A stretch of 64,000 nucleotides of DNA from Antedon mediterranea (taxonomy: Eukaryota; Animalia; Echinodermata). Made by a program: the position numbers and the translations under genes. A model generated the notes under the pieces. The model was not told where the DNA came from. It saw only the letters and a list, made by a program, of their open reading frames with translations, and did no database searches. Below are positions 41,301 through 64,000 of this stretch, piece by piece; position 1 is the stretch's first letter, and each line of letters opens with the position of its first letter. Location: the NCBI RefSeq assembly GCF_964355755.1, contig NC_092678.1, positions 15,030,371-15,094,370 on the forward strand, in the 5' to 3' direction.

Positions 41301-44105
41301 CCGGTTGATTACTATATAGTCCAGTATTAAACAGCACACGCATTTTACTTGTCTTGCTGCCAATGTAAATGCCATGTTTGTTTCTGAACATGACTTGATA
41401 CGGCGTAATATCATTTTACTACAATAATTCATGTTAATTTTATTATTATTTATTTATTATTATATGTTAATTTATTGAAACATACAGTAATTTATATTAT
41501 TATTTTTTCTCGTTTCTATTACAAATAATACTAACCATGTATCTATAATATTTGTGGGCACATATAATATACTAGCAGTAGTGTAAACTAGCTTGGAAAG
41601 TTTTAATTTCATTATTTTACCAAAATACATTTCTTTTTTCCCAAGCTTTTAACACCTTTTTTAATTTGTTGATCTTCTCACCTCAATTATTTTTGTGGCA
41701 TTTCTTGTTATTGTAATCAAACAAAGTACCAAATAATGTACAGGGTCATCAACTCACTGTATTCTAAATGATTCACAAAACATAATGTTTTGAAGATCCA
41801 CAATCATTTGATTTTCATTTTGGTTGAAAGTATGTATATGTTTCAAGAAATTAAAAACGAGGAATAAAATTAACATGAATTACTGTAGTAAAATGATATT
41901 ACGCCGTATCATGTCATGTTCAGAAACATGAATGGAATTTACATTTGCGACGACCCAGGGCACTTAAAAAGTAACGGAAAAAATGTAATGGAAGGGTAGT
42001 AGTAGACAAGTAAATGCAGGTTCTGTTTATTGTCCCTTGTCATATAGGCCTACTGGACAATATAGTAATCAACAGGAGCAGATACTCTATTAGAAGAGCC
42101 AGATTGCGTTATACAAGCACCAATTTATGTTAATCAGTGATTTTAAGGAACATAAACAAACAAAAAAACCTTACAAAACCAGTCTACTTCATTTAAATAA
42201 GTTTCAATATTTTTTTTTATCTCCAACCGAAAGTATCTTATCGTCAGCTAACTTAGCAATTTAATCTCCTGTAGTTTCTATCCAAATTTAGATTTAACTA
42301 AACATAATAATAGCTTGCCTGCTAGTAATAACAACTGTCTTAGTAAAGGTTTATGAGAGATAATCTGAAACAAACATTTTGTGTTTTTAAAAATTAAAAA
42401 TAATATGTATAATTAATATTATGCTAAGCCAAAAAATAAATCTGAAATATTAGCTATACACGCGTTGATAATAGTAAAGGTGTAGTCGAATGAAAGAAAT
42501 ACAAGTAATTGCTAAATGATGGTATTATTACATAATTTACCGACCCGTTTTATATTCATGAAATTTGCTAATATACCTAAAATCTAGATGTTTGTAATGG
42601 ACCATATGTATATCATATTATCATTTTTGTTTTTTTTTTTCTTTCTACGTTTGTGTTAATTTTACTATTGGAGTTCTATATGTTTTAAAGCATATTTTGG
42701 AAAATGGCGTTAATTTCTAAATTGTTGTGTGTTAATGTTTACGTTTTTCGTGCGTTGATTTTACGAGTTGCGTTGTGGCCCTACATACTCTCACCTTATA
42801 AACATACATATTGTTTTACTAATAGAACTCTACATATTATAAAGCTTATTTTGTTAGAAAACTGTTTTACGAATTGAGTTTTTTTCAATTTTTTTTACTT
42901 TTGCATTGATTTTACGATTTATAAATAAATATTATGTATTGTTTTTCTGATATTGATTTTTGACAATATGAATTGTATTTGTTACAGGTGTTGTTGGAGC
43001 ATCAAGTTCATATCCAGGTATGTTAAGTTCTGTCTACACTATCAAACTTTATGTGACAAAAAAAAAGTGATGTGCCCATATATGGACCATATTTAAGCAT
43101 ATCGCTACCCTCTTTCGGAACATCACACTTTTTTTGTCAAACTAGTTTGATAGTGTAGACAGAGGTTTAGGTTTGTTGGTTGTAGTGGTTTAGATTAGTG
43201 GATATTAATTACAATGCACTACAGTCGAACTCACTGTCGCTCATTGATAGAACAGAGAACTGTAAATATGAGTGAAGTGAATTTTACGTTTAACAATTGA
43301 TAACATTCGGTGCCATGTTTAAAACATTTATATAAAGTAACCTCTCATTTGTATACTTGTTAGGCCATGGAAACGAAATTGATGGTTATGATAATGAAAG
43401 AATGATCTAGAGTCACATAAAAGTATGCACAATAATAAATGTTCACTATAAAGTGTACAGTGTACAAGGATACTGAGTGGTGTTTCATTACTTTATATTA
43501 TAATCACAATCTTATAGCAAATGACAACAGTGATTATAATCATGTTAACCTATTATGCTGAATTGATTACATATTGTAAAATTGCTTTATTTAACCATGT
43601 AGATCTTTCGGAAGATGAGTTTAAACAGTTAATTACAGAATTTGCACAATGGTATGATGAACGTGGACTCCTTAACAGACTGAAAGTTCTGTTCAAAGAA
43701 ATGCTAGGCGACTTTGAAGCGTTGAATAGAGTTACCAGTACATTCGACCTGTTAGCACTGTTAACTGATTCTGGGCTGTTGAGTCGACAAAAAATGTCTG
43801 TACTGTATGATACAATACAGATAACTAAACAAAATGGCTTTGAGGACATGGTTAAAAATAAGCTTCCTTTTTTCCAAAGTTTTAAGACCCAAACTACATT
43901 GTCATTTTCACCACATACCATAAATCTGTTTAATCTGGGAAAAAGTCTCAGTGACTTAGATATGAAAACTCTTGATGGACGTTTCAACTTCCCTGTTCTT
44001 AAGAAGTATGACGACAGGTGGAGTTTGATTTTGGATTTGGAATCACGAGGGTTGCTAAGTGAAGATAAACTTGAATCAGTTGAGAAGGACGTTTTGAAAA
44101 GATGA
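14235..44105 (+). CDS. Gene 1: ankyrin repeat - Roc - COR - tandem DED ROCO protein (spliced, 5' end not seen)
   Basis: GT-AG exons in consistent phase. ANK exons: 14235-14339, 14581-14691, 15758-15859, 16096-16206, 26323-26427, 26916-27020, 27215-27319, 27703-27807. Then 31684-31768, 33198-33363, 33628-33725, 33975-34043, 34575-34723, 35521-35610, 35755-35946, 37608-37853, 39155-39349, 39502-39654, 39741-40040, 40322-40417, 40530-40734, 42988-43017, 43603-44105; these last 15 exons total 2577 nt and stay open to TGA. Confidence 0.85.
14581..14691 (+). CDS. Ankyrin exon B1 (37 aa, phase 0-0)
   Basis: tttttag|EGINALHIHLSDRYVKPTLEIVTNLINLGVSPTLQNK|gtaaag. Confidence 0.75.
15758..15859 (+). CDS. 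Ankyrin exon A2 (34 aa, phase 0-0)
   Basis: cacag|NGYTPINIYLERDDVKLEILYCLITNGESPTLPK|gtaatt. Confidence 0.7.
16096..16206 (+). CDS. Ankyrin exon B2 (37 aa, phase 0-0)
   Basis: tttag|EGSNALHIHLSGRYVKPTLRIVTTLIKLCVSPTLQNK|gtaaag. Confidence 0.7.
16514..16830 (-). mobile_element. tRNA-derived CORE-like SINE
   Basis: Reverse strand reads GGAGCACTGTGGTGCAGTGG...GGTTCAAGCC...CCTTGAGCAAG...ATAAATGGGTACC; absent from the paralogous site at ~14990; imperfect TSD aagtgc..tacgta. Confidence 0.8.
17216..17445. repeat. 76-bp subterminal tandem repeat x3
   Basis: Unit starts at 17216, 17292 and 17368 (cgtttagatt.taaa.gcatagcttgtaccc...). Confidence 0.9.
19151..20587 (-). mobile_element. Non-autonomous Helitron, copy 1
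   Basis: Reverse strand A|TC...hairpin GATGGTACGCGAGCGAAGCGAGCGTACCATC-TAG|T; no TSD; highly similar to copies at 27914 and 58416. Confidence 0.9.
20806..24711. mobile_element. Non-autonomous TIR element with TTAA TSD (Kolobok-like)
   Basis: TTAA|GAGCCATTGTCTGTAA...TTACAGACAATGGCTC|TTAA; imperfect inverted homology extends ~500 bp inward. Confidence 0.8.
22443..22973. mobile_element. pogo/Tigger-like MITE
   Basis: TA|CAG...GGGAGGTTCAACTG|TA with repeated AAGCGGCCAC motifs; left TIR partly deleted. Confidence 0.6.
26323..26427 (+). CDS. Ankyrin exon C1 (acceptor disrupted by transposon)
   Basis: DGNTPLHEYLRSNKPTLEIVDYLRKQGASITAQNK|gtacag; AG intact, but the native pyrimidine tract is displaced 9.1 kb upstream. 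Confidence 0.65.
26916..27020 (+). CDS. Ankyrin exon C2
   Basis: gaaag|DGNTPLHEYMRSNEPILEVVDYLTKQGASVTALNK|gtaata. Confidence 0.8.
27215..27319 (+). CDS. Ankyrin exon C3
   Basis: ctatag|DGNTPLHEYMRSNEPTLEVVDYLTKQGASVTALNK|gtaatt. Confidence 0.85.
27703..27807 (+). CDS. Ankyrin exon C4
   Basis: ctatag|DGNTPLHEYMRSNKPTLEVVNYLRKQGASITAQNK|gtgata. Confidence 0.85.
27914..29356 (-). mobile_element. Non-autonomous Helitron, copy 2
   Basis: TC/CTAG ends, A|T target; the paralogous intron at ~26530 is an empty site. Confidence 0.9.
29783..29806 (+). pseudogene. Truncated ankyrin pseudo-exon C5
   Basis: tttatag|GAC TGA AAC ACC CCA CAG CAT GAA: stop at codon 2, then homology breaks off. Confidence 0.8.
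30395..31253. mobile_element. Helentron-associated (HINE/DINE-like) element with nested RTE-like LINE 3' fragment (~30443-30680, minus)
   Basis: Absent from the paralogous intron at ~27540; terminal palindrome TACCTCCTTGGCGGAGGTA and a related CATACATCCGCC near the other end; nested PGKRRRGGPRCKWENNI...EDRRRF. Confidence 0.6.
31684..31768 (+). CDS. Ankyrin C-cap/linker exon of gene 1
   Basis: ttatag|EGKTAVSILEENTQIEQTKQMMILEYFD|gtaagt, phase 0-1. Confidence 0.8.
33198..37853 (+). CDS. Roc GTPase domain exons of gene 1 (running into the start of COR)
   Basis: PPEI..MG..AI..Y pre-Roc motif; G1 GKEGAGKTS; G2 PSTDGI; G3 WDYAGQ..YYITH; G4 LVATHIDK; then IPLKWL at the COR start. Confidence 0.92.
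36299..36615 (+). mobile_element. tRNA-derived SINE with Deu/Nin-like domain (intronic)
   Basis: A box TGGCCGAGCGG, B box GGTTCGAGGC; TCGGATAAGGACTATAAACGTAGGTCC...TTAAAGAACC...GAGTAGGGGG..CCCCGGTGT. Confidence 0.75.
38904..39054 (-). mobile_element. Helitron 5'-end fragment (same family)
   Basis: Matches 29207-29356 including the A|TC terminus. Confidence 0.85.
39155..40734 (+). CDS. COR and post-COR exons of gene 1
   Basis: AIRYMNDIGKIMY..TVITN, EEGILEEKLLRYLW, FLVPCQM, FLPEAVYHTLVV; ends in Cys/His-rich VCDAC..HHLVDL..C..PCG. Confidence 0.85.
41222..42145. mobile_element. MITE-like element with ~220-bp imperfect inverted repeats
   Basis: 41222-41445 is the inverse of ~41863-42145 (aaaatcactgattaac.../...gttaatcagtgatttt). 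Confidence 0.7.
42988..43017 (+). CDS. 30-nt linker micro-exon (phase 1-1)
   Basis: ttacag|(G)VVGASSSYP|gtatgt. Confidence 0.65.
43026..43166. mobile_element. 141-bp Harbinger/Tourist-type MITE
   Basis: TIR CTGTCTACACTATCAAACT, TTA TSD (43023-25, 43167-69). Confidence 0.8.
43603..44105 (+). CDS. Terminal exon of gene 1: two divergent death-effector-domain (DED)-like units
   Basis: FKQLITEFA...LKVLF...TFDLLALL..SGLLS...VLYDTI, then FSPH..NLFNLGKSLSDLDMKTL...WSLILDLESRGLLSE; DED-like helical pattern. Confidence 0.75.
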
Positions 44106-45889
44106 AATGAAATTAAGCTGACTTGCGGTGGTCTACATTTCACCACTACTGCAATCAATGTACCTATGCATTACTATACTATACAAATAAGATGAATTTA
44201 CAGTACATAGGCCTATCTGTCATAATTGCACCATTGGTTTTTATATTTGTGTTACTCTTGTTCATTATTGTTGTGATGTAATGCGGGAGTGTCATATACC
44301 TATGCAATACCGTGATACAGTTGTATTATTAATATTCAGTAGCATAGTATAATTTAGTAGCTTTATAGGTTTTAAATGTCGGTATGATATTATGAATTGA
44401 TTTTATAATACTGAATTTTAATACAGTTAGTACATTATTGTCTTAAAAGTGGCGATGACACCTAAGCGTAATACTCAGGCACATACGATGGGTAACTCCA
44501 CATCCGTCTGTGTTCTTGGTATTATGCTTTACAGTGCTGGTACCCATTCAGTACAAATAAAAATATCTTCCCAAATCAACATTTCATGCATTTAAGCAAA
44601 CTGGAAAGATCCGGAGTTTATTAGTCGTAACAAAAAACTGGTCCACACATTTATTTACCAAACTAGGCATATGGCCTACCTTTTTTTACATTTAGTAGAT
44701 GTCATTGCTACACTTAGTTTGCTATTCTTTAACTCCTTTAAAAGAGTTACGATTCGTTATTATAGTTTGAACATGGAGAGTACCAACATAACCACTATGT
44801 TTTTAAGGATGTGTGTGTATGCCCGGTTGTTCAATGCTTTGTATTTTTATAATTAATATATGTCTATATTTTTTCGAATTTCGTGAAAATACATAATAAA
44901 AAACAAACAAACTATATTATAGTTCAAGCCCTATTGCAAGACATAGCGAACAAGCTACTTAACAGATTAATTATAAATACTGCAGCAAAACTCACCGGCA
45001 TCAAATTAAACAACCGTAAACAGTTAAAGTTCAAAGAGTTACATTGACCATCGGTAATTTTACGAATTCAAATGTTTTTTTTCTAAAATATAATCGTTGC
45101 TCCAGTGATCGTATGTTCCTAACTTTTATTATGTTTAACATGTTAACGTTTTCATCAATATCATACTGTGTTTTTGTATTTCAAATCTTGTTTTAAATTT
45201 GATTTGTATGTTTTTAACTGTACAGTGCATGCATGCCTACAATATTATTTTGTGTCTAACACATGATGTAAATATAGAAGACAATAAACTACCGGTACTA
45301 GCTATGTTTTGTCATTTTACTGAAACAGGTATGCATGTGAACTTATCGTTTATTTTTTTTTTTAATTTAAGAATACTTCCTACTTTTTTCAAACATCTTT
45401 AATCTGTTTACATTTGAAGAAAATGTGATCTTCACCATCAGTGATGCCACACTGTTTACAATGTTTGTTATCTTTTAATTTCCAGATGTATAGTGTTACG
45501 GGCTCGCTCGTTATGCTGAAACCAACAATAAGAACATAAAAAAACACGTTGTAGTTGTCGTCCATCTTTATTCATCTCCCCTCTTTTCCTCTAGAGGGCT
45601 CACTTCAGTGTGAGAAACCCATCACACACCCCCACTTAAAGAAAGTTTGATATGATTAAACTTATAACGGTTTACTATAACATCTTAAATCTTTTCTTAT
45701 ACAGTAGTTATTTTAACAGGTCGTTGATATGAATTTACTTCAACTGCTTCTTTAAAATTTCACAAGTTATAATTACTTTAAATCCGTGTATGCCATTAAT
45801 GCATCACTCTATCACAACTAACATATTATAATTAAATAAACACTTTTAAAATCAACAAAACTTTTAAAATCATTTCATGCATGTTTTAT

Positions 45890-46903
45890 CTAAACTCTTG
45901 ACAAAGCGTCAGCTACAACATTGTCTTTTCCTCTGATATGATGAATTTCCAGATTCATTTCTTGAACTGCTAAACTCCATCTCAACAAGCGTTGATTCTT
46001 GTCCTTCATTCTTGCCAAGAAAGTTAATGGGTTGTGGTCAGTCCACACTACAATTGGAAACGGAGTAGATCCAAGATACACTTCAAAGTGCTTTAACGCT
46101 GACATCAAAGCTAATGTCTCCTTCTCAACAGTAGAATAACGTTTCTCATGCAGGTTGAATTTTCTGGAGTAGAAACACACAGGCTTGTCAACACCGTTCT
46201 CGTCTGTTTGCGCCAACACAGCACCAGAACCAACATCACTGGCATCAATCATTAACGAGAACTGTTTATCAAATTGTGGAGCCATCAACACCGGTTCGTT
46301 TGATAACATTGCTTTAACTTTAATGAACGCATTATTGCATTCCTCCAACCACACAAAGCTCGCATTCTTTTTCAGCAGATTCGTTAATGGAGCTACAAGC
46401 GTTGAGAAACTTCTGCAAAAACGTCGATAAAACCCAGCCATTCCCAAGAACCGCATTAACTCCTGCTTACTCTTTGAAACTGGGAAATCACAGACTGCCT
46501 TAATCTTAGCACTTAATGGTTTCACTTTTCCGCAACCAACTTTATGACCTAAAAACACAATTTCTGCACAGGAAAACTCGCTTTTCACCAAATTTACTGT
46601 CAACTTTGCAGCTGTCAACCTGTCAAACAATGCCTTAATTCTCTGCACATGTACAACCCATGTATCACTATAAACAACCAAATCGTCTATATAAGCTTCA
46701 CAGCCCTCCAACCCTGAACTTATACCATTAACCAATCTCTGGAACGTGGCTGGTGCATTCTTTAAACCGAAAGGCATGACCTTATACTGATAAAGACCCA
46801 TAGGAGTTACAAAAGCTGACACTTCTTTCGCACGCTCGGTTAAAGGAATTTGCCAGTAACCCTTTAGAAGATCAAATTTACTGACAAACTTAGCACTACC
46901 CAC
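45890..46903 (-). pseudogene. Reverse transcriptase / RNase H part of pol
   Basis: DLLKGYWQ, MPFGLKNAPATFQR, YIDD, FLGH, DASDVG, EKE, TDH, NVVADALSR. Confidence 0.95.
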
Positions 46904-47207
46904 ACGATCAATACAGTCGTCTATCCTCGGTATGGGATATGAATCTGTAGTAGATTTGGCATTAACCTTCCGATAATCAGTACAAAAGCGATACGATTTA
47001 TCTGGCTTCGGAACTAATATACATGGAGAACTCCAAGCACTGCAACTAGGCTCGTGTAATCAATCTCATTTTGTAATATCTTCATCTTGAACGGATTTGC
47101 TCTATATGGATTTTGTTTTATTGGTGAACAATCAGCTGTCTTAACGTCATGCTCCACTAAGTTCGTTCGACCTGGAACATCCGAAAACAACTGCAGATTT
47201 CCAAATA

Positions 47208-49047
47208 TCAAACTAACAATTTCAACCTTACGATCACGAGATAAATGACCAACTTTCTCTTCAATGTTTGCAAGAACATCTGAATTACTGAACTTAACAC
47301 ATGTATCAGGATCACCAAACTCTTCAGAATTGACGTACAGGTATCAATTTTATTTCTCGCTGTGTATGGTTTCAACATGTTTATATGACACAGTCGCTTC
47401 TTCTTACGCCTATCTGGAGTATCTAACACATAGTCAACTTCTCCTACTCTTTCTAATACTTTGTAAGGACCAGCAAATCTTGCAGATAATGGTTGACTGG
47501 GAAGAGGCAACATAACTAACACTTCATCACCTTCTCTTTTCTGATTTCCTAACAAACAATCTCTTCATTTTACCCTGAGCCTTCACAAGATTCTTTCTAG
47601 CCATCTCACGAGCACGATTTAATCGATCACGAAACTCAGACACATAATCTAGTATCGATACAGACTCTTCTGAATTCCCTAACAGCCTTTCTTTGACTAT
47701 TTTAAGAGGGCCTCGGACCGAATGACCATACACCAACTCAAATGGGCTAAACCCTAAGGACTCTTGCACTGTTTCACGAACAGCAAATAACAATAAGGGA
47801 ACTCCCTCATTCCATTCCTTTTCACATTGAAAACAATAGGTTTTAATCATATTCTTAAGTGTTTGATGAAATCTCTCAAGTGCCCCTTGAAACTGTGGAT
47901 GGTAAGCACTTGAACTTATATGGGCAACACCTAACTGCTCTAAGACTTGTTTAAATATCTTTGACATGAAGTTTCATCCTTGATCGGACTGAACAGCTTT
48001 AGGCAATCCTACCCATGTAAAAAATTTGACCAATGCTTTAACAACATTCTTAGCTGTAATACGCCTAAGAGGAATCGCTTCTGGAAACCTACTTGATGCA
48101 CACATTATTGTTAATAGATACTCATTTCCATTTTTAGTACGTGGTAATGGACCCACACAATCAACAATAACCCTTGAAAATGGTTCACCGAATGCAGGAA
48201 TAGGCTTAAGTGGGGCTACTGGAACCTTTTGATTAGGCTTCCCCACTACCTGACACGCATGACAGGATTTACAATAGTTAGACACATCTTTTCTAAGACC
48301 TGACCAAAAGAAATGCCTGAGAATTTTGTCTACCGTTTTATTGACACCTAAATGCCCTGAAAGAGGATCATCATGCGCAATACCAATAATATCCTGACGG
48401 TATCCACTAGGAATAACTATCTGGTGAATCTCATTCCAAACATCACTACTTGGAATATCTGGTGGCCTCCACTTACGCATAAGTATGCCATCCTTTATAT
48501 AATAACAAACAGGAACAATAGACATTTCCTCTACAGAAAGAGCTTGCTGACCAAATGACACCAAATCAGGATCATTACTCTGCTCTTCCACTAACCTAGA
48601 CCAATTGAGAACTGTCGGACCGAAATCACACACTTTTGGGTGCTGTTGTTCAGCCTGGGCAGTGTGTGACTTGGGACCTGAGCAGACAGCCTCTTGGGAA
48701 ACGCGATCTGTAATTTCTCCGTAAAAACTATCACATAAGTCAATACTCTCATCCTCATCTATGGTTTTATTTGCCATAGATCGCGTCACCGCACATGATG
48801 GAAACACATGTGATAATTCTTTCTCTAAACACACCGTGTTTTCGTCTTCAACAGGACTCTTGCACACAACCGGTTCTACTGTCACTCTGTCTCCGGCCAA
48901 ATCATTCCCCAAAAGGAGTGTGACACCCCATACTGGAAGACTCGGAACGACACCGACAACAAAATCTCCGCTAACAATATCTGTTTCAATCCGAATTACA
49001 TGAAGTGGGACTTCCTTATAACCCCCTTCAACACCTTGAATGAGCAC
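47208..49047 (-). pseudogene. Integrase part of pol (frameshifted)
   Basis: H..H..C..C zinc finger, VDCVGPL, SDQG, LERFHQTLK, GPY; split over three ORFs. Confidence 0.92.
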
Positions 49048-49077
49048 ACTTGCTCCAGCAGAAGACTCGTTTGAAAA

Positions 49078-50511
49078 TTACAATGCCGATTCTATTATCA
49101 GGGATTGTGACGCCCCTGTGTCTCTTAAGACACGAACTTTACTCAGATTCACATCGTTGATCAATGCTACAGAACCAGTAGAGAGGAAAGGCTTAAATAG
49201 CTTTCGCACTTTTTCCGGACCTGAAGATTGGATCAACTTCTCACATTCATCAACGTCATGACTCGCTGTCACTTTCAACGGGACTGTATTTACTAACGTG
49301 TTTGGAAGTGATTGGGGTTTCTTATTATCCCCTTTAGATTTGCATTGAAACAGCCAGCAATCTGCCTTTATATGACCCTTTTTCTTGCAGTAAAAACAAG
49401 TTCTGACAAATTTACTACTACTATTAACTGTAGTTTTCTGACTTTGGACCTTAGAATCATCAACAGATTTGGAAACCGATTTGGTATCCACCACCTTGTG
49501 CGTGAGCACATAATTATCGGCAACAGAAGCCGCTTTCCTTAAATCATCAACTTTCTGCTCCTCTAGATGTGTTCGAACTTCAGTAGGGGAACAAGATTTA
49601 AACTCCTCAACTAACATAAGCTCACGAAGCTTTCCAAATTCACCCTTTTCTCGTTCCGAACTACACCATCTATCAAAAAGAATCTGCTTCTTACGTGCAA
49701 ATTCTGTAAACGTTTGATCATAAGGTTTACCTAAGTTCCTAAATTTCTGACGATACGCCTCTGGAACTAACTCATAAGTTGACAAAACAGCAGTTTTAAC
49801 CGCATCATAGCTTTCACATTGATCATCAGCCAATGCAGAAAATACCTCTTGGGCTTTACCCACAAGAGCAGTTTGTAAAAACACAGTCCAGTGTCTAGCA
49901 GGCCACTTTAATCTATTAGCAATTTTCTCAAAAGCTAAAAAATATGTCTCTACCTCGTCCTCATTAAACTTGGGAACCCATTTAATATTCTGAGTAATCT
50001 CTGAATCATTAGGTGTAGAAACCCGTGTGGTGTGACCCATTTGGTTAGCTAATTCTAATTTCTTTAACTCAAATTCATGTTTTTCTTTTTCCATTTCTCT
50101 TTGAGTTTGCATCTCTATTTTTCTTCTTTCAAAAATCAATTTTTCACGTTCCAACTCAATTCTAGCCAACTCGACCTCATTCCCCGCAGTTTTTACGGAT
50201 TCATGAGTAATTAAACCAACATGATTTCCAATCACATTTATCAAGTCATATTTATTCATGGTATCATTTATAGATGCTCCAACCCTAGTACCTAGGAGTC
50301 GCAAACGCTCCTCTGATAGCTGAGCTACCACCTCAATGGACATGCTATCCAAAAATTCCTCGTCAAAATCACTTTCTGACATAGTTTCTATTCGAAACAA
50401 ACAAACAAAAACACAGGTTAAAATAACCAATATGACGATAATTAAGGCACCAGTAATGAAATACCTGCCAAGCCCACACAGTATTAAACCTACCGTGCGC
50501 CGTGGTCTCAA
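49078..50511 (-). pseudogene. gag (SCAN-like capsid region, CCHC knuckle) + aspartic protease start
   Basis: VPEAYRQKFR, LVEEFK, CFYCKKKGHIKADC, RDTGASQS followed by a premature stop. Confidence 0.9.
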
Positions 50512-51900
50512 TAACTAGACCCCTAAAATAAAAGCCAAACCGACTTCTACTATCACAGGCAAGCCTACACAAGCCTAAAACAACAACACAGTGTACTGGC
50601 TCGACGACCACCAAACCTCGTTCGTTATAAAACGCCTCTAAACCTAAAACCAGCTTAGAATAAGTAACTAAAATTACCATCAGTTCGATCTACAACTACA
50701 ATTCCGTACTTTGTTCCCGGATGACCCCCCAATTTGGTACGGGCTCGCTCGTTAGGCTGAAACCAACAATAAGAACATAACAAAACACGTTGTAGTTGTC
50801 GTCCATCTTTATTCATCTCCCCTCTTTTCCTCTAGAGGGCTCACTTCCGTGTGACATCACAATAGCTTTTGCTTTGTAGTGCAAAACATTGTAATTTAGT
50901 TTTGCTAAATGTGTATTTTTCATTTAACATACCCTTGATATTATTTTTTTTCTTTTATTATAAATAACGATTATCTAATTATTTGATTTTGAGCATCTCA
51001 ATTTTGCTTGTAATACAAATACTGTGTCTTGATATGTAATGTAAATAATATGATGTGGCTGCCAAATTTTTTATTTATTCATAATCGTTTCCGATATTAA
51101 ATATATGACATATTCCATTCAGTTTGGAGTTGTGTGCTTTCTTTTTTTCTCTACTTTTTTTGCTGTCTTCCGGTGACATAAATAACAGTTATTTTTAGGC
51201 CAATTTCAGGACGACAAAATGATGTCTATTTAGGACAACGTTTAAAGTTTGATGTGTATGCTGCACTAAACGTCAAATTAAAACAATAGGTATACTGCAT
51301 AGAACTGCATTATACGATCCGATATTATTTATTGGCATGTTTATAAACAAGGTACAAATGAAATGTGGTTGGTTGATTGTATTTATTTAGACAAACGAAT
51401 ACAAAACAATGCGTCGTAACCAGTGATTTTAAATTAAAGAGATCTTACAGATTTGTTATTAAAGACATGGTTGAATAAACGAATGCTTGTCGACAGTCTT
51501 TAGTGTTTTGATTCAGAGTGAATGTTATAGTCTATAGAGAAAGTTTGATTTAATGCTTCTTTCAGATTGACCCTAATTTGTCAGGTACCTCCTTTGTTTT
51601 CAATCCCTTTCTTAGTACATTTCACTAAATTTGAGACAATTACGAATTAAAATAACGCTATACGAGCAGGTAAAAAATGACAAAATGCGCACAATAATTG
51701 CAAAAAGTGCTGAAAAGTAAAAGAGAAAAAGGCAATTTTAAAATGAAAATAATTCTTCAGAATAAACGATGACCCTCACTTTTTTAATTTATTCTGGAAG
51801 TCATTGAGTTGTAGATATGCATTCATGTACACATTTGAGCTACAAAATATTGTGACGTCATCAAATGGCCACGAGTCAATTTAATTTGTTTTTCTCTTTT

Positions 51901-52071
51901 CAAATATTATCACATTCAACAGAACGCATCTTGATTATTTTCGTAAAATACTATCATATTCAACAGAACGCATCTTGATTATTTTCGTCAAATACTATCA
52001 CATTCAACAGAACGCATCTTGATTATTTTCGTCAAATATTATCACATTTAACAGAACGCATCTTGATTATT
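51901..52071. repeat. 44-bp minisatellite, ~3.9 copies
   Basis: Unit caaatattatcacattcaacagaacgcatcttgattattttcgt. Confidence 0.9.
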
Positions 52072-52429
52072 TGTGCCCGATTTTCCCTCAAATTTTGATA
52101 TGTGCTTGTTCAATTAGTTATCTTTCTCATGACTAAACACCTAAATAACGTAGGTCATGTAATGAAAGCTGAAAAATGTACAATTCATACATAAATCAAG
52201 CCAATATTTTGCGATCATATTTTAACATAAGTGAATGTTTTTTTAAATTAACTTTCAGCAAAATTATATAAATGATCACCTATAATTCGTCAAATCGAAG
52301 ACTTAAATTCTAGTTTTATGAATGTTATAATAGGTTCAGTGTTGTTTTAAGTGTTTATTAGAATTATGGTAAAGGAATTATTAGGTAGGTCTAATAAATA
52401 CTACCACTGTTTACCAGCTTGAGTTAAAT

Positions 52430-55400
52430 AAAATAATTTAGTTTGACTGGTATTGACTCTCTCATGCATGCATTTGAATACGTAAACATGCTGATAGTCA
52501 CATTTATAATTATTGTGTGTATATTTTCGTAAAATGGGAACCCTGAACAAACAAGGTAGAAAATGAAAATGTGTGGAATGAAGAAGTGAACCGCTTTTAT
52601 CTAGAGCTTTATAGGTAAAAGTCGTAAAAATGATGATTTCAACTCTAGTTTATAAATAATGTATAATGCTACACAGTATTCAATGCAATGATATGTAATT
52701 GCTAAACATCTATTTTATTAAACTAAAGATTCAATTCCGTCTGCTTGGTAGTCATGCGAAACCTCTTTATTTCCAATGATAACGACCGAGTTCACAAACA
52801 CTATAGTACTACACTTTATTTGTTTAAAGCTACGGTTATTCAAAAGAAAGCATAAATATGTATGGGTTTAGCAAACGTAGCCATTATACAGTTGGAGTGC
52901 CGTGGAATTATATGTAAGTTGTTTAGCTTCTATTGTTTCTACTGGTTAGTTGTACCCTACATTTATGCTAGTATAAATTACATTCTGACTGTAATGCAGT
53001 ATACGTTATTGTTTTTGTTAACTATTTTTTTATATTTCTCGCCTCTTGTTGGTATGTATTTTCTCTGTTTGGTCAAGAGTTTATTTATTATTAGTGTGAC
53101 AATGCCGTAGTCAAGATTATTTATGTTTTGATTTCAATTTCATTAATAAGTTGACTATTTTCAATCAATGTACAGTTTTACAGACCACTACATGTTTTAT
53201 TCATTCAGGGTAAATATTAGGCCTAGAGATATTTTATATGTTGTTTTGAATTTGAATAGAGAGTCTATAATGTTTGTCTTTCGTACACACCACATCTAAA
53301 ATAAAACTAATTCGTCACTTTCACAAATTGTAGGTACTTTTTGAGATATCATATAGTTTTCCTGACACTTCAGTGTTGGTTTAGTTAGTTAAGTGGCTTC
53401 CAGGTACGCGTGCCCTCATTTGGCAACATTTTTGTTTTCAATCATGCTAACAAATAAACTATATAGGGCGTTATCGAGTCAATTGAACATACATGAGGAT
53501 ATCTCTCCTCCAATACTCTTTACGTTTATATGTTATTTGTTAAAATATGTTTTTAACAAATAACAGATAAACGTAAATTTGATAAATACAGTTTTAGAAA
53601 GTGCACAATCATATTAACGTTTACATGCTTTTTTGCATGCAATGTTCCCCAAAAGCCTAATTATTTTCATTGCAAGTGTATTAAGACAAAGTCTACTAAA
53701 GGTGCAATAATTATCGCCACCTTAGTTTTAGCCAAGTTAAGCCTCCCCTAGCTAATGCATGTTCTGCATCAGTATGATATGCCAGACAGGTAATGCCAAG
53801 AAGCTCATGAATAATTAGGACTTCCATAGAAATCCCCTAACCCCTGAAAAAGGGTTGTAAAAATATTCTATATTTTTTAAAAATAAGTTTATATTGGTAA
53901 ATTTTAGTTGAGCATTTATTTTCCCATCATCAATATTAGTTGACATGGTGAACAGTTAGAAATTTAAATATTGGCTAACACCTTTAAGACATGTCAAGAT
54001 GTATTATTTTAGTTTTACTGGTAGGCCTATTCACTCCCTCGTGCATGTATTTAAATATGTACTCTCAAGCTTTTAGTCAACTTTATAATGTTGTATAGTT
54101 TCAGTAAATCGGAAACCGATACAGACCGCACAAACAAAAACATTTGTGGAATGAAGAAGTGAACGGCATTTACATAGTCTAGAGCTTTATTGCTAGTACA
54201 TGATATATAATCAGTCAACATGATGATTTCAACTGTAGTTTGATCAATAATACGTATCATGCTACACTGTAGTCAATACAGTGATAGATATTTACTCAAA
54301 GTATATTATCATTAAACTAAAATATTCATTCATTTTTGTTTGTTTGGTAATCATGCGAAACCTCTTTATTTTAAATTATAACGACCAAGTTCATAATCAC
54401 AATAGTCCTACACTTTATTATATTTGTTTAAACAAAAAGCTACGGATTTACAGAAGAAAGCCTCAAATATGTATGGTTTTATTATACTGTTTGAGTGTCG
54501 TGAAGTTATATGTAAGTTGTTTTAGCTTCTACCGATTAATGTTACCCTATGCTAGTATAAATGTAGTTTGGTAATCGAGTGGTTAGGACACTTGACTGTC
54601 ACCCAGGTGGTTAGGACACTTGACTGTCACACAGAGAGACCTGGGTTCAATTCCCCAACACTCCCAGTCTACTCAGCTGTAAATGAGTACTTGATTGAAA
54701 ATACTAGAGAGAATAAGGCGGCGTGGAAAGAAATTTGCTACCCTACCACATAATGGCGGGGCATGTAGAATTAGCTCATTACCCTATGTTCAGAATTAAA
54801 TACGGGACCTTTACCTTTTTAGTATAAATCACATAAACTGTTTTGAATTTTTTTCATCCATGTTTTTTTTATTTCCTCGCCTCTTGTTGGTATGTATATT
54901 CTCTGTTTTACCATTTGTGTATTTATAATATTGTGACAATTCCGTTTCAATTTCATTAATATGGTTAATATTTTCAATGTGCAGTTTTACAGTTATCGGG
55001 ACCATATTGCGAATAGCGATGTTGTTGTGGCCAAAGTGCATATCGGCCTCACTCCTCCAATCCTCTTTACTTTTATCTGTTATTTGTTAAAATTATAATG
55101 TTTTATTTGTTAAACAGTTTTAGAAAAGTGCAAAATCATATTACGTTTACATGCTAGTGTATGCAATGTTCCTCGAAAACCTATTTATTTTCTTTGCAAA
55201 TGTATGAAGGCGAAGTCTACAAAAACCGCACCAATTATCATCATCTTAGTTTTAGCCAAGTTAAGCCTAGCCTAGCCAATGCATGTTTTGCATCAGCAAT
55301 TAGAGGTATCATTGCCAAACAGGAAATACCAAGAAGCTTATGAATAATAATACCCTAACAACTGAAAAGGGGTTAAACCTTGAAACAAGACAAATTATTT

Positions 55401-56350
55401 TATTTTTTATAAATCAGGTTATAATGGTAAATTTTACGTTAAACCTTTATGTTTCCATCATCAACAGTTCTTGACATGGTGATACAATGTTAGAAATTTA
55501 ATTATTTAAGAACAGATGTATATTTTAGTTTGGCTGGTAGGCCTTTTAATTCCCACATGCATGTATTTGAATATGTACTCATTCTTATAGTTAACTTTAT
55601 AGTGTTGTATAGTTTCAGTAAATTGGAAACCGGAAAGGACAGTACAGAAAATAAACATTTGTGGAATTAATAAGAGAACCGCAATTGTCTAGAGCTTTAT
55701 TGCTAGTAGATGATATATAATCCGTTGACATGATGATTCCAACTCTTGTTTTATAAATATATTTATGATGCTACACAGTAGTCAATACAACTAAAGATGA
55801 ATTCATTTTCGTTTGTTTAGTAGTCATGTGAAACCTCTTTATTTTGAATGAAAACCCCCGAGTTCACAAACACAATAGTCCTACACTTTAGTTGTTTATA
55901 CAAAAAGCTACGGTTATGCAGAAGAAAGCCTTAACTATGTATGGGTTTGTAAACGTAGCCATTATACTGTTGGAGTGTTATGGAATTATATTGACGTTGC
56001 TTTAGCTGCTATCGATTAGTTTTACCTTACTGTTATACTAGTATAAATGACATTCCGAATGTAATGCAGCATACTATGTTATTGTTGAGTTGTTTTTCTA
56101 TTTTGTTCAGACATCTTTTTGTTGGTATGTATTTTCTGTTTTCATTTAAATGTATGAAGGTTCAATAAATGTACAGTTTTCGTGAACCATTAGATGTTTA
56201 ATTTATTCAGGAAAATTATTCCATTTATTTTCAGTGTAATTTTAGCTTGTGTTTTTACTTTTAATAAAGCGTCTACTATGTCAAGTCATTGTTTGATTTT
56301 GTCACTTTCACAAATTATAGGTAATTTTTGTGATAAAAATAACTTTCCTG
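52430..56350. repeat. Diverged ~1.5-kb non-coding tandem duplication (about 2.5-3 copies)
   Basis: tgtggaat..a.aag.gaac.gc anchors at ~52572, ~54145 and ~55660 with collinear downstream blocks. Confidence 0.8.
54560..54820 (+). mobile_element. tRNA-derived SINE with duplicated A-box region
   Basis: GTGGTTAGGACACTTGACTGTCAC x2, B box GGTTCAATTCC, CAGCTGTAAATGAGTAC, tail ACCTTTACCTTTT; absent from the sibling duplication units. Confidence 0.7.
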
Positions 56351-57790
56351 ACATTTAATAAAAAAAATCCCTGCAAACGCAACATGCACGTACGTTAGTA
56401 TGATAGTAAATTGTTGCCATGCTATGATCTGAAGCATAATTTGCTTATAGTGCTGAATTGTGCCTATTATTGTGTTATATAATAATACAGTTAAGAGTAT
56501 GTTGCACATAAAAAGAGTGGCTTTTTTTAATTTTAAGTTGCTACATAACATTTTACCAACTAGGTGTAAGCTAAAATTATGAAATTTGTCAAACAGTAAA
56601 TATTGTAATGAGGAGGTTGAAAATGAAAAACATATGTTATTTACATGCAAAGAAGTAAAACATTGCTGGGTAAAATGTTGCGCTATGCTGAAAACATGTT
56701 TTGCATTTACTCAGGAAGTTACATTGGAGAAAATTGTACTTGGAAAATAAGATGTCAAAATTACTGAAATATTTTCCAATTTAACTTTCTGTGTTTATAA
56801 AAGTAAAGTCAAACATAGACTAGGACTTGTCAAAAAATGTCCATGGTTAATGTTCACTGTGGAGTTAGAAGGTATAATCAATTGTGAGTTTTTAATAAAT
56901 AAAGAAAAGGCAAAAAAAATGTGGTCAGATATGGACCGTAACAATTTAGCAAGGTATAAAATTAACGTTTATAAAATTGATATTTAGGTAAAGTAAAATA
57001 TAACTTTTTTTTTTGATTGCCTGAAAGAGATAAAAAGAATTATAAAATAAAGAATTATGTGGTAAATTATACGTACATTGTTAAGGATTGAAAAACGTGT
57101 AAAGTGTGTATAACATAGAGGAAAATGTTTTTTTTCCTCTTTCCTTATACTATTATATATAAAATGTAATGGTAGGAGTGAGATATCAGATGTAGTGAAA
57201 GTTATTTAATGTCAATTATAGTGTATTGTATCATTACATTACTCTTGTGCAATGCATTGTAAACGAACATTTTATTGATGAAGAAATAAAAGTGGGTTGA
57301 TTCTACATAAGACAAACAAAAAACAACATTTACATTTACAGTTTTTGACGCAATATTCTCCAAAAAACCGTAATTATTAATTTTCGAACTTTTTTTTGTG
57401 AGAAATTAAAAGTCTTCATTTGAAGAAACTTTCTGTGATACTTTTCATAAATCATATTACACAATAGTCTTAATAATCTTTTTGTATAGATCGAGCTTAA
57501 TTTCTTCTTGTTCTGTTTTATTGTGCACGTAGGGTTCTTGTCCTGTATCCAACAGAAAGTCACGTGCTCTTAATGAGCAATGTTTGTATTGTACTTCAAA
57601 TGTTTTTGACAACTGAATATTAATACTAGTGTTCACTAATAGTATTGCTGTATACATATTATATATTAATGTTGTATCAAAACTTGTATTGTAATAATAA
57701 TATTTAATTCGATTAATAATATCATCTTCAGATAATCAAATCAAACTAAACCAGCAAAGAGCTTTATGAAGACTAAGTATAGTACTTAAG

Positions 57791-60700
57791 ATGTCGAGGT
57801 GAGTTGTAAAGTTGAAGAGTTACAATACTATACGAACACGGCTACGAAAAACATAAATGCTATCATTTTTTTTAATTATTGATGTAACTCATTCTATATT
57901 TCATATTTGACCATTACAGATTACAAGATGCTTTTAAGATGAATGACTTGCAACAAATTAAAGAAATATGTCAGAAAAATCCAGATCTTTTGAAAAACAA
58001 AGATGAGGTAAAACAAAAGATAGACTTTCCATATTATTACTAATAAGAAAGTATAGTAATTCATTTAGTTCCAAGAAGATCATACATTTATGTAAATTGT
58101 AAAGTGTAATCATTATACCTATATTCAAATATAATGAATACTGTTTAATATCCTGGATCAATAACATATGCTTTAGTGACGAATGCTGCAAATTAAATAA
58201 ATAAATAAATTTAGTGACATTATTTATCGGTACTTACTGTTAATGTTTGTCTTAAATTATGAGATCGATGTGTACGGTTACTGTAGAGGGTTGGCCGATT
58301 AGTTAGACGGTCAGAATGACAGTTTCAAGTCAAGAGCCATTTTTTTGTATGTGAAATAATTATAATAATTAAGTTCATCCAAATCCAATCTAGTAAAACT
58401 TTTTCGAAATCATTATCTATATATAAATTTACGTAAGGGAAAAATTCGGTAAATCGCGCGTTATTTCTAGAATGTTTACTCGATGGTATATAAAGTTGGT
58501 TCGTACATTCGGTACTGATTTTAACCGCCTGATGTAACCCTGTTTACTAATTAAATTGAGTTCGATAATTAGTTATTGACGATTAAAACGAATTTAGGTT
58601 CAACGATTTGCCCCAAATAGGGGTGTTTTTCGATCGTGGTATACACTGTCTAATGGATGTCCGTCTTGAAAAATACCCGCAGACGATAATACGAGGATGC
58701 TTCGCATTTTCCTATCTTCTCCTACGATAATTGTTTTTAATGGCTGAAAACCGGTTGAACAGCTCGAGTACAGCATCATAATGTTGAAGACAGGCCGATT
58801 TTCTTTAAAAAATACTATTTTGATAGATTTAATATACGTTTATACAAATGTATTGATTTGCGATGAATGGAACATTCCAATCTCTGTTCCACAAGTGTCT
58901 ATTCCCTCAGGCGTCGTAAAGGCAAGTACTGTATACTCATAACAGAAATTCGATCCATTTTTTTTTTCAATCTGTGCTGCAGAGGTTGGATATACATTTT
59001 TTTTAAACGGATAAAGAGCTAGCGTTTTCACTCGCCGTATATTATTTATAAATCTTTATTATTGCAGTTAAACCACCCACATCATCACCCTTCCCTCACT
59101 GGCATGAGTAGCGTTGTAAAACCAGTAAAGGATAGGCCTACGGTACATCACATGCCCTAAACGCAGAACAACTTTGGTGGGTAGGGTAGGAACCAACTTA
59201 AGTATGAATTGGCTCTAAGAAACAATTGAAAACCATTAGGCCTACTAATTAAGTTAAGTTAAATAATTTAATATTTATTGACGATTAAATCGAATTTATG
59301 ATTTTCCCGAATAGAGGTGGTTTTCACAAATTGTTTTACATTATATAAACATATACACGTCGTAGTGATGTATCGTTACATGTAGGGCCCACTGTACTAT
59401 TTCAATCGACTAGGACGGTGATAGTTTCAACAAAGTATTACATCGCAATGTTTTACTGTGTTTAGTGGTATATTATTTGTAAAACATGAAAACAATAATA
59501 ATAATAATAATAATAACTGGTACTTGATATAGCGCATTATGCTGAAAGCCTCAATGCGCTTTACAAAGACAGAACAATTTATAAATTTACAAATTAAAAA
59601 GTGGGTTTTGAGGAGAGATTTGAAGACACTGGTGGAAGTAGCCTGACGGATTTCAATAGGCAACGCATTCCATAGAGAAACGGATGCCAAAGAAAATGAA
59701 CGATTTCCATAAAACTTAGTGGAAGGATGAAATATATGGGCAAGAAGAGACTCGGATCTAGATCTCAGAGACCGCTTAGGAACATAAGGTTGAATAAGTT
59801 CAATTAATATTTCGTTACTAAATGGATAAAGAATAATATTAAAAAATTGTTCCTCTTTGCACCCATCCTCTTCCCCATATCCATCCCTCAACCCTAATGT
59901 TACATACAAAACACAAATTAAGTTTGTTTAAATTTGACTTAAACAATTGGTTTCTCTTTCGGAAGTAATTCACATGGTGCTAATTTTAGTTGAGTACATA
60001 AATCACAGTGTCTATTTATTCGTTCCTGTAGGCTGTAAACGACATGTATTATTGTCCTGCGGTACGTACATATGAAATCGCCAGTTTTTTAACGCTGAAA
60101 TTATTATGTATTCGAGAACCATCTGTGTCTGTGGGCACGACCTAGATGGTACGCGAGCGAAGCGAGCGTACCATCTAGTACAGATAATTCATAATGGTGA
60201 CCAGACTCACATGTCTTTGTCAATCGACAACAGCAACTTTGTATTCACTTTTTTCGCTTATCATTATAGTAATTATAATTATTTTTTACTTCAGGGTTGT
60301 AACATAGCTGTTTGTGAGTATAAATGTAACTGATTTTAGTCATCAAAACAGTATTTAATTTACAACAGTTGTTAATTATTATGTGACATGAATAAAAAAC
60401 ATGTGTGCATTACAGCTGTAATCTATATTTATAAACTACATGATTATGATTTCTTTCTAGCAAGGATACACTCCACTACATGACTATTTACTATGTGCCA
60501 ACTCTACAACAGAAATAGTGGATTATCTCATACGGCACGGCGCATCAGCAACGTCACAAACTATGGTAATGTACACAAAATCATAATGCCCATACGATTA
60601 CAGTAGGTCTTTATGTCGTTATTATTAAAACAGTAGGCCTATCTGTTCCAGCAAACATCTCATTTCATTTATAATTTGTCATTTATATTTAAATTAATTA

Positions 60701-63330
60701 TTTAGAATTATTTATTGCGAATTTTTGAAGCAGTTATGGAATGAAACAATAAACGAAGGCATGCAATAACCGACATTTGTTTATAGAAACAATAATACAT
60801 TGCATAAAGTCAATTATGACATCATTATAATCGATTGTCATTCACACATTTAATTACAATTATAGTAGTACTTCAATGTATCTGTCTAATTTGTTTAAGT
60901 TGGTTTAAATAATATAATAATCAACTCTTGAATACTTTTATTTGGGTTATATTTTATATAAAGGCGTAAATTTTCTTTTTTGATTCAATCAAGTTAGTTC
61001 GATAGTTATGTACGAAATAAAAAAGTACTTACTACGACGTTTTGCAAACCGGTTTTTAAGTAGACTGATTGTTAGTTGCGTTGACGTTGGTCAGTACGGC
61101 GTGTTATATGTGACAAGCCAGATGTGTTGTAAATAAAGTACAAATAAATTTAGGTGGTTTTTATTGTTTTGTACACTCAGAAGATGTTGTCATGACACTG
61201 TAGAATTTACAACCATTATCAATGTGGCATGACCGAAAAATATGATTGCATTACATCTGGAATTGATATTTACTACTACATGTTTATGATTTCTTTCTAG
61301 CTTGGATACACTCCACTACATGTGTATTTAGGATGTTCCAATCCTACAAAAGAAATAGTGGATTTTCTCATACAACACGGCGCACAAGTAACGTCACAAA
61401 ATAAGGTAACATACAATTTTAGGAGGTCTATTATGCAAGTTTTAATAAAACATTATCGGTTCAAGCAAACATCTCTATTTCATTTGTAATATGTAATTTA
61501 TAATTAATATTAATTATTTTGAATTATTTATTGAGAAGCAGTTATTGAATGAAGCAAGAAATTAAGACATGCCATAACCGACATATATTTTTAGAAACAA
61601 TACTACATTGCATAAAGTCAATTAATATTAATTCACACATTGTATTACAATTATAGTAGCACTTTAATTTATCTGTCTAGGTTGTTTAAGTTGGTTTATA
61701 TAATATAATAATCGACTCTTGAAATAATTTTATTTGGGTCCTATTTTATAAAGGCGTAGACAAGTAGACTGTTGCGTTGACGTTGGTCAGTACGGCATGC
61801 TATATGTAACAAGCTATGTGTGGTAAATAATGTACAAATTAATTTAACTGATTTTTATTGTTTTGTACATTCAGAAGATTTTGTCATAACAATGTACAAT
61901 TTACAACCATTATCAATGTGGCATGACCAAAATATACGATTGCATTACAGCTGGAATTGATATTTATAAACTACATGATTATGATTTCTTTCTAGCTTGG
62001 ACACACTCCACTACATGTGAATTTACTATATGGCAATCCTACAACAGAAATAGTGGATTGTCTCATACAACACGGCGCAGATGTATCGTCACAAAATGAG
62101 GTAACATACAATTTTAGGAGGTCTATTATGCCAGTATTAATAAACATTATCGGTTCAAGCAAACATCTCTATTCGATTCATGACGTCTCTTTTATAATTA
62201 TATGAATTACTTAGAAGTATGTATTACAAATTCAAAAACAATTATAAAATAAAAAATTAATTAATTAAAAACTGTATTATGCAGAAATGCCATGATCGAT
62301 ATGTGTTTGTAAAACAATTATAACTAAGTGCGTCTCGCCAATTATGACGTCATATAATCGATTGTCATTCACACATTTGTATTACAATTATAGTAGTTCT
62401 TCAATTTCTCTGTCTATTTTTTTTAAAGTTGGTTAGAATATAATTAATATTCTTGAATTAATTTCATTGGGTCTTAATTTAACATAAACAAAATATGAAT
62501 ACATTGCATGAATATGACTTCTTTCTAGTATGGAGACACTACACTACATAGGTATTTGTGATATTCTAACAGCAATAGTGACTTGTGTCACATAGTATGG
62601 TGCATCAGTAACATCACAACATGTAGTAATGTACATACAATCATAGTGGTATTTATGTCATTATTGTGAAAACAGTATCTGTTCCAGCAAATATCTCTAT
62701 TTCATTTATAATATGTAACTTATAATTAATATTAATTATTTTGAATTATTTATTGCGAATTTTAGAAGCAGTTATTGAATGAAGCAAGAAATGAAGACAT
62801 GCCATAACCGACATGTTTTTTTAGAAACAATATTACATTGCATAAAATCAATTAATATTTAATTCACACATTGTATTACAATTATAGTAGCACTTTAATT
62901 TATCTGTCTAGGTTGTTTAAGTTGGTTTATATTATATAATAATCGACTTTTGAAATAATTTTATTTGGGTCCTATTTTATAAAGGCGTAGACAAGTAGAC
63001 TGTTGCGTTGACGTTGGTCAGTACGGCATGCTATATGTAACAGGCTATGTATGGTAAATAATGTACAAATGAATTTAGCTGGTTTTTATTGTTTTGTACA
63101 CTCAGAAGATTTTGTCATAACAATGTAGAATTTATAACTATTATCAATGTGACATGACCAAAATATACGATTGCATTACAGCTGGAATTAATATTTACTA
63201 CTACATGGTTATGATTTCCTTCTAGTCTGGATATACTCCACTACATTTGTATTTACTATGTGCCAACCATACAACAGAAATAGTGGATTGTCTCATACAA
63301 CACGGCGCAGAAGTAACGTTACGAAATAAG
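57791..63330 (+). CDS. Gene 2 (5' part): ankyrin-repeat protein related to gene 1, continues beyond the window
   Basis: ATGTCGAG|gtgagt 57791-57798; 57920-58007 (RLQDAFKMNDLQQIKEICQKNPDLLKNKDE); 105-nt ANK exons 60461-60565, 61301-61405, 61996-62100, 63226-63330; phases consistent. Confidence 0.85.
58416..60178 (+). mobile_element. Non-autonomous Helitron, copy 3 (with nested L2 fragment)
   Basis: A|TCTATATA...hairpin-CTAG|T. Confidence 0.9.
59495..59801 (-). mobile_element. 5'-truncated L2-type LINE 3' end
   Basis: PYVPKRSLRS...GNRSFS...LWNALP.EIR..TS..VFKSLLKTHF plus a (TTA)n tail; absent from the other Helitron copies. Confidence 0.85.
62529..62625 (+). pseudogene. Ankyrin pseudo-exon (97 nt, TGA at codon 11)
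   Basis: ttctag|YGDTTLHRYL*...|gtaatg; net 8 nt shorter than the 105-nt exons. Confidence 0.8.
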
Positions 63331-63773
63331 GTAACATACAATTTTAGGAGGTCTAATATGCCAGTATTAATTAAAACATTATCGGTTTAAGCAAACATCT
63401 CAATTCCATTTATGACGTCTCTTTTATAATAATATGAATTATTTAGAAGTAGGTATTGCAAATTCAAAAACAGTTATTAAATAAAAAAAATAAATTAATC
63501 AAAAACTATATTTTGCAGACATGCCATGATCGATATGTGTTTGGAAAAACAATTATTCCATAGTATAACTAAGTGCGTCTCGCCAATTATGACGTCATAT
63601 AATCGATTGTAATTCAAACATTTGTATTACAAGTATAGTAGTTCTTAAATTTATCTGTCTATTTTTTTAAGCTGGTTAGAATATAATTATTATTCTTGAA
63701 CTAATTTCATTGGGTCTTAATTTAACATAACAAAAAAATATGAATAAATTACATGAATATGACTTCTTTCTAG

Positions 63774-63870
63774 TATGGAGACACTACACTACATAGGTAT
63801 TTGCGATATTCTAACAGCAATAGTGACTTGTGTCACATAGTATGGCGCATCAGTAACATCACAACATGTA
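63774..63870 (+). pseudogene. Ankyrin pseudo-exon (97 nt, frameshifting)
   Basis: Duplicate of 62529-62625 with CGA instead of TGA; length is not a multiple of 3. Confidence 0.8.
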
Positions 63871-64000
63871 GTAATGTACATACAATCATAGTGGTATTTA
63901 TGTAATTATTATGAAAACAGTATCTGTTCCAGCTAACATCTCTATTTTATTTATAATATGTAATTTATAATTAATATTGATTATTTTGAATTATTTATTG

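Follow-up and report, generated by a model that had tools for sequence, protein, structure and literature searches.

The window, i.e., the whole 64,000-nt stretch of Antedon mediterranea DNA that was analyzed, carries an upstream gene (gene 1) and the head of a second one (gene 2). The window stops within the ankyrin array of gene 2, which runs past the window end, and the expected ROC-COR part of this gene lies outside it. The genes and the exons considered here are as follows.

26323 to 44105, plus strand: gene 1, an upstream paralog with 19 GT-AG exons and a 998-aa open frame.
57732 to 57798, plus strand: likely first coding exon of gene 2, with a putative ATG at 57791, the donor GAG/gtgagt, and an in-frame splice to the next exon.
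57920 to 58007, plus strand: 88-nt exon of gene 2 with an N-cap-like segment, assigned by protein alignment of the spliced gene 2 head.
60461 to 60565, plus strand: intact ankyrin exon Ea, 105 nt, phase 0, with a 3′ flank that matches the broken-exon type.
61301 to 61405, plus strand: intact ankyrin exon Eb, 105 nt, phase 0, with a flank type shared with Ec and Ee.
61996 to 62100, plus strand: intact ankyrin exon Ec, 105 nt, phase 0, Pfam Ank 29.6 bits.
62529 to 62625, plus strand: broken exon Ed, 97 nt, with an 8-nt deletion, TGA at codon 11, an old-frame TAG, and A at donor position −1.
63226 to 63330, plus strand: intact ankyrin exon Ee, 105 nt, phase 0, Pfam Ank 32.8 bits, with 12 residues unlike Ec.
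63774 to 63870, plus strand: broken exon Ef, 97 nt, with the deletion and donor as in Ed and CGA at the place of Ed's TGA.

The open frame of gene 1 runs from four ankyrin exons through ROC and COR to a tandem DED-like end; within the window, the first coding exons of this gene were not found. The 998-aa frame contains the ROC motifs GKEGAGKT (P-loop) and WDYAGQ, and its ROC-COR part is 61% identical to the Antedon protein XP_071964198, which itself scores above the Pfam Roc and COR-A cut-offs. The assignment of gene 1 as a ROC-COR tandem and predicted GTPase is indirect; single exons scanned alone gave weak Pfam matches. The last exon (43603-44105) is 100% identical to an Antedon mediterranea protein and reached 21.1 bits (E 4e-4) against Pfam DED, below the cut-off of 35.9. 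RefSeq XP_071959885 covers just the final 320 of the 998 aa, and the RefSeq models across this gene cluster are fragments. XP_071964198 carries eight TPLH-type ankyrin repeats, Roc, COR-A, and a weak DED; this protein and XP_033098335 (P0252) from Anneissia, two examples of the family, are both annotated as uncharacterized. Among 18 relatives scanned, COR-A was present in 15 and ankyrin repeats in 2, and the 10 relatives looked up came from Antedon (8) and Anneissia (2). Like gene 2, the crinoid ANK-ROC-COR-DED proteins have an N-terminal cap and ankyrin repeats of the TPLH-x-YL type, while the repeats of XP_071964198 are 37-39 residues long compared to 35-37 residues at this locus. Relatives P0004-P0010, P0140, P0243, and P0272 carry the same tandem DED-like or ROC-COR modules joined to ZU5 or HEPN_DZIP3 domains, which suggests domain shuffling within a large, predicted crinoid family. 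A literature search with thin coverage of subscription journals returned no description of crinoid ankyrin-ROCO genes, papers on repeat-exon arrays were of a general kind, and the accessible part of PMC8195603 does not describe an ANK-ROC-COR-DED family, which seems to be undescribed.

Six ankyrin-type exons (Ea, Eb, Ec, Ed, Ee, and Ef) follow the cap exon of gene 2. The reading frames of Ea, Eb, Ec, and Ee are all open and their donors all carry G at position −1. Each phase-0 exon encodes one ankyrin repeat, and the 12 open ankyrin exons of the window all measure 102-111 nt. A Pfam Ank (PF00023) scan that took in Ea, Ec, and Ee, leaving out Eb, passed the cut-off of 21.1 bits in all three cases, at 25.2 bits for Ea and at the values given above for Ec and Ee. 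The spliced gene 2 head aligned to XP_071964198 (P0137) from residue 5, with 46% identity (E 7e-32), in a blast that covered 156 of 276 stored proteins, 120 generic ankyrin hits being excluded. A protein search with the gene 2 ankyrin exons yielded no Antedon-named match among 120 of 214 hits listed; with the cap exon, none of eight candidates scored and no protein model with gene 2 exons was found, both results being weak evidence. Based on the head match to XP_071964198 and on the ROC-COR make-up of its relatives, gene 2 is likely an ANK-ROC-COR-DED gene, and gene 1 likely indicates what gene 2 encodes past the window end.

Other elements are scattered over the window. A Gypsy-type LTR retrotransposon lies on the minus strand between genes 1 and 2 (45494-50854), with LTRs 97% identical over 120 nt and a frameshifted pol. 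Three copies of a high-copy, non-coding element (about 1.45 kb) occur at 58408-60180, 19140-20588, and 27903-29357, each in or beside an ankyrin-exon region, with a nested insertion in the 59.5-59.8 kb copy. Upstream of gene 2 are three diverged (72-73%) copies of a non-coding unit of about 1.5 kb (52433-56137), and positions 51856-52116 form a 44-bp tandem array. By their motifs, 4831-6687 is a LINE-like endonuclease/reverse-transcriptase fragment and 429-839 a transposase-like fragment.

The 3′ part of the visible array is organized in repeat units, delimited as follows.

61471 to 61479, no strand assigned: recombination scar at which the intron flips from Ec-type to Ed-type flank.
61481 to 62702, plus strand: repeat unit 1, made of long intron, intact exon, short intron, broken exon, and the start of a long intron.
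62703 to 63947, plus strand: repeat unit 2, with 76 differences from unit 1 over 1,272 aligned columns.

A preliminary description of this DNA had proposed a duplicated unit of about 1.23-1.245 kb, and this size was borne out by two colinear units of 1,230-1,245 bp, each with one intact 105-nt and one broken 97-nt ankyrin exon and with periods of 1,230 bp (61996 to 63226) and 1,245 bp (62529 to 63774). The duplication of two exons together also stood, but not its start at 61996: homology begins at about 61480, in the intron after Eb, and runs on to the window end, where the window stops inside the next long intron, so that the visible array amounts to two units. At the scar, 22 of 23 diagnostic sites up to 61470 fit the Ec flank and nearly all sites from 61480 fit the Ed flank. 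From its Ec-like start and Ed-like end, we infer that the intron after Eb is probably the product of an unequal crossover between two related intron starts. The unit following Eb carries no 97-nt broken exon, and the scar looks like either the trace of a deleted broken exon or the beginning of a unit.

We then compared divergence rates over the 1,272 aligned columns of units 1 and 2, split by region. The copies differed at 15 of 105 positions in the live exon, 2 of 97 in the dead exon, and 59 of 1,070 in the introns. The preliminary description had reported a gap of about 2 nt between the broken copies, which is exact, and about 10 changed codons between the intact partners, where the divergence is real but the count falls short of the actual 13 codons (12 residues, 15 nt). 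It had also implied a special conservation of the broken exon, which the data do not bear out, since its divergence is indistinguishable from that of the introns (P = 0.23). Indeed, 97% of shuffles hold some 97-nt window with two or fewer differences, and intron windows from about 61475 and at 61575-61725 are as conserved as the dead exon. Both differences between Ed and Ef are CpG-to-TpG transitions in Ed, one of which creates the TGA. For the live exon, the comparison with introns gave P = 0.002 naively, 0.06 after scan correction, and 0.17 with the breakpoint bin included; on alignment of the units the introns were not as diverged as the intact exon, in keeping with the earlier claim that the live exon diverged faster. 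Because the dead exon evolves at the intron rate and the non-synonymous divergence (pN) of the live exon is above it, the asymmetry between the two exons stems from a fast live exon rather than a slow dead one. What had appeared as a paradox reduces to ordinary parts, i.e., intron-like drift of the dead exon and probable diversifying selection on the live exon, and the dead exon and introns provide a built-in neutral clock for the live exon.

Sequencing-read contigs were compared to the window for six runs (X1, X5, X6, X9, X10, and X11) of 14, none of the 14 being on record as RNA. These six runs cover introns like DNA, show no exon-exon joints among the rows listed, and are silent on expression. 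Across 61950-62680, the live exon accounted for 20 of the 40 variant rows listed (93 in total), the 428-nt intron for 17, and the dead exon for 3, and at the latter three sites most or all contigs differ from Ed. Compared to the Ed stretch, the dead exon differed at 4 of 162 letters in X1, 7 of 203 in X6, and 5 of 142 in X11, mostly at the same sites, and it was found mainly in one contig, at a depth of 1040 in X1 and 1345 in X6, against a unique-stretch depth of about 150 and about 70-160, respectively, depth not being a copy number. For the live exon, X1 held 15-20 contigs per position, of which the seven longest had depths of 135-279 and were all clearly diverged from Ec, in a set that includes older paralogs and from which Logan contigs drop rare variants. 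These observations hint at near-identical dead copies and diverse live copies beyond those visible. Live exons are not always unique, however, since one live-type contig of X6 reaches a depth of 691. Two X6 contigs match Ed over its first 29 nt and from there, by eye, run into undeleted ankyrin-like sequence, which suggests that a live parent of the dead exon survives. For the dead exon, cross-species conservation based on X9 and X11 was considered and set aside (depth 2-8, short contigs); the X11 label says nothing on other species, given its depth of 2-5.

Ec and Ee are separated by 13 non-synonymous and 2 synonymous changes. Their pN of 0.166 (13/78.5 non-synonymous sites) was above the intron rate (P = 0.0007), while the synonymous divergence (pS) of 0.075 (2/26.5) equaled it (P = 0.66). 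The pN value was also above that of the nearest 200 nt of intron taken together with synonymous sites (P = 0.018), while the contrast of pN with pS inside the exon was not significant (P = 0.35). A pN about three times the intron rate makes it likely that the intact exon is under selection, as a signal that comes from one exon pair and 15 changes and is of moderate significance. The 12 changed residues (codons 1, 3, 8, 9, 12, 13, 15, 29, 31, 32, 33, and 35) fall on the ankyrin hairpin, helix 1, and the turn, in a register taken from alignment to DARPins, and none falls on helix 2 (codons 16-28; longest-run P = 0.01), although codons 21-22 of helix 2 are variable across the family in read contigs. 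Using what we take to be the DARPin variable-position numbering, five of the six positions randomised in the DARPin library were changed between Ec and Ee (P = 0.012). According to the part of PMC8683736 consulted, the randomised surface positions of DARPins form the paratope. On this alignment and numbering, the residues changed between Ec and Ee are likely to represent a predicted binding face.

A second duplication in the window served as an internal control.

13529 to 16517, plus strand: second two-exon duplication of about 1.5 kb, with ankyrin exons of 105/102 and 111/111 nt, both copies in frame.

In this duplication, the exons differed at 10 of 213 positions (4.7%) and the introns at 68 of 1,213 (5.6%), i.e., without acceleration, and nine of the 10 scored changes were non-synonymous. 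It lies about 10 kb and a mobile element away from the next ankyrin exons. When the five ankyrin exon pairs of the window were pooled, pN (0.066) equaled pS (0.062).

Part of the live-exon excess may reflect a mosaic of older ancestry, because the introns flanking the live exon are also more diverged: 31 of 399 positions (7.8%) differ within 200 nt, compared to 28 of 671 (4.2%) in the distal introns (P = 0.018), a contrast that was not significant at 100, 150, or 250 nt. In its full form, this explanation dispenses with positive selection: the live exon and about 200 nt of flank would have been swapped in from an older paralogous exon by conversion or crossover, with framework residues under purifying selection. 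A three-column tract (61967-61969) in which Ec sides with Ea and Ee sides with Eb is consistent with such a swap, as is the scar at 61471-61479, and the related live-exon contigs of X1 represent possible donors. However, synonymous divergence (7.5%) matches the flanks and pN is twice that; of the 15 changes, 7 occur in Ec alone, 7 in Ee alone, and in the remaining one each copy agrees with another visible exon; and no long tract from Ea or Eb was seen, a comparison limited to donors in the window. We consider a swap without selection unlikely. Selection, possibly with conversion, is the best reading because of the non-synonymous excess of the live exon, so that, of the two processes initially proposed, selection is supported and conversion may act alongside it. 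The two are not mutually exclusive, since a divergence peak at a selected exon under gene conversion has been described for exon 5 of the human red/green opsins (PMC3924837, as far as the available text goes). As in that case, the selected exon is highly diverged and the rest of the tandem duplicate little; in contrast, the crinoid duplicates are exons inside one gene and probably young, and conversion is putative here.

The broken exons share the 8-nt deletion and a TAG in the former ankyrin frame, and differ at 26-31 of 97 positions from each live exon of gene 2. The lesions common to Ed and Ef (deletion, old-frame stop, and lost −1G) are older than the duplication. Changes by codon position (9/5/4, P = 0.31) fit neutral decay in what is a weak test. 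Their splice sites had been described as retained, which holds for the ttctttctag acceptor, the GT, and the gtaatg, but not for the exon side of the donor, where −1G is lost, with T at +5 (GTA/gtaatg, compared to ATG/gtaatg in Ea). Among the 28 presumed-used donors of the window, 25 have −1G and the remaining three are perfect GTAAGT, and none lacks both −1G and +5G as Ed and Ef do. With four of nine U1 consensus matches, the Ed/Ef donor is in the lowest class, to which one of the 28 used donors belongs. Animal and plant donors fall into two classes with either a strong exon side or a strong intron side (bioRxiv 10.1101/2022.12.07.519539, in the part available), and by its letters the Ed/Ef donor would belong to neither. 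Translation would end at codon 11 of Ed if that exon were included, and Ef, if included, would shift the frame, while the frame survives skipping because the neighboring exons are all phase 0. Frame rescue by a cryptic donor 5 nt downstream, giving a 102-nt exon, was rejected: the exon would be open in Ef only, the ankyrin frame would be lost, and the cryptic donor (AAT/gtacat) is again without −1G and +5G. A role of the dead exon as a source of conversion tracts in live exons was likewise rejected, as no common tract was found. Six other ankyrin-exon remnants (at about 2339, 2725, 12826, 17018, 26700, and 29746) each carry a different lesion, and exon death is thus common at the locus; these degenerate or truncated remnants span 2339-2828, 12826-12874, 17018-17051, 26700-26731, and 29746-29808.

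Poison exons are known from SR-protein and similar genes, and the 97-nt exons resemble them as frame-breaking exons with AG and GT within a coding gene. The preliminary description held that they must be skipped or act as poison exons. Skipping is favored because the donor is crippled; the poison or truncated-product idea fares poorly, with the kept acceptor and the low contig variation in its favor. As regulated poison exons, they would be included at a low level and lead to NMD or to ankyrin-only products, consistent with an acceptor and GT kept in both copies, a stop or frameshift upon inclusion, and a near-invariant sequence in the X1, X6, and X11 contigs, with high depth. Unlike poison exons, however, they show no conservation above that of introns and originate from a decayed repeat exon; moreover, a donor without −1G and +5G has no counterpart among the presumed-used donors in this sequence test, an exon of this kind is missing from the unit after Eb, the lesions of the other dead exons are unrelated, and the low contig variation is weakened since rare variants are dropped from Logan contigs. 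Regulated poisoning is therefore very improbable, and the 97-nt exon is best read, from its sequence, as a pseudoexon that is skipped and was duplicated as a passenger. It is just as improbable that the whole of gene 2 is decaying and that the contrast between live and dead exons arose by chance, as the scan-corrected P of 0.06, the lack of an annotated protein with gene 2 exons, and the fragmentary RefSeq models of the cluster could suggest, given that the four live exons all have open frames and −1G donors, that their changes avoid helix 2, and that the intact neighbor gene 1 is likewise annotated as a fragment only.

Taken together, we consider it probable (roughly 0.68) that the 97-nt exon is a broken, likely skipped passenger of a 1.2-kb two-exon duplication in a likely ANK-ROC-COR-DED receptor gene, and that the adjacent intact exon likely diversifies a binding face under selection. 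Unequal crossover between homologous introns, as the scar suggests, would add or remove units, and the spliceosome would join phase-0 intact exons across the dead exon, keeping the frame. Conversion may homogenize introns and the dead exon between units, with selection maintaining the differences among live exons, which would leave a divergence peak at the live exon. The ankyrin stack could act as a ligand sensor linked to a ROC-COR GTPase and a DED-like effector, probably in immunity or cell death.

The closest precedent is provided by the LRR-ROCO genes of brown algae, and the crinoid locus works like that system without being a member of it. In Ectocarpus, according to the available part of PMC3341825, ROCO genes encode one LRR per exon, inactivated or inverted LRR exons often keep their splice sites, and positive selection acts on the concave face of these proposed immune receptors; a later study, also consulted in part, reports alternative splicing of LRR exons (PMC11378527). 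As far as these accounts go, both systems consist of tandem paralogs with N-terminal repeats, one per symmetric exon, on a ROC-COR protein, and both contain inactivated repeat exons in the repeat domain, represented here by Ed, Ef, and the six remnants. As to selection on the binding face, the algal trait, the Ec/Ee pN lies above the intron rate, but pN equals pS in the pooled pairs of the window. Inverted repeat exons were searched for on the minus strand of the window, and all nhmmer matches had an E of 0.45 or worse. Unlike in the algae, the crinoid repeat is an ankyrin of 35-37 residues, the host is an animal, and the C terminus is DED-like. ROCO domains joined to immune domains have been noted in Aplysia (PMC9334734, in the part seen).

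A broader proposal, which we advance tentatively and regard as doubtful, is that feather stars independently evolved an exon-cassette variable receptor, i.e., an expanded ANK-ROC-COR-DED family whose binding face would be remodeled one exon at a time by unequal crossover, conversion, and positive selection. This natural DARPin library would be convergent on brown-algal LRR-ROCO, and its dead cassettes would be amplified, possibly as spacers, conversion templates, or NMD switches. If true, the crinoid ankyrin-ROCO-DED family would represent an animal counterpart to the ROCO receptors of brown algae, as well as a candidate immune-recognition family in the least-studied echinoderm class, which would matter more than a single exon pair.
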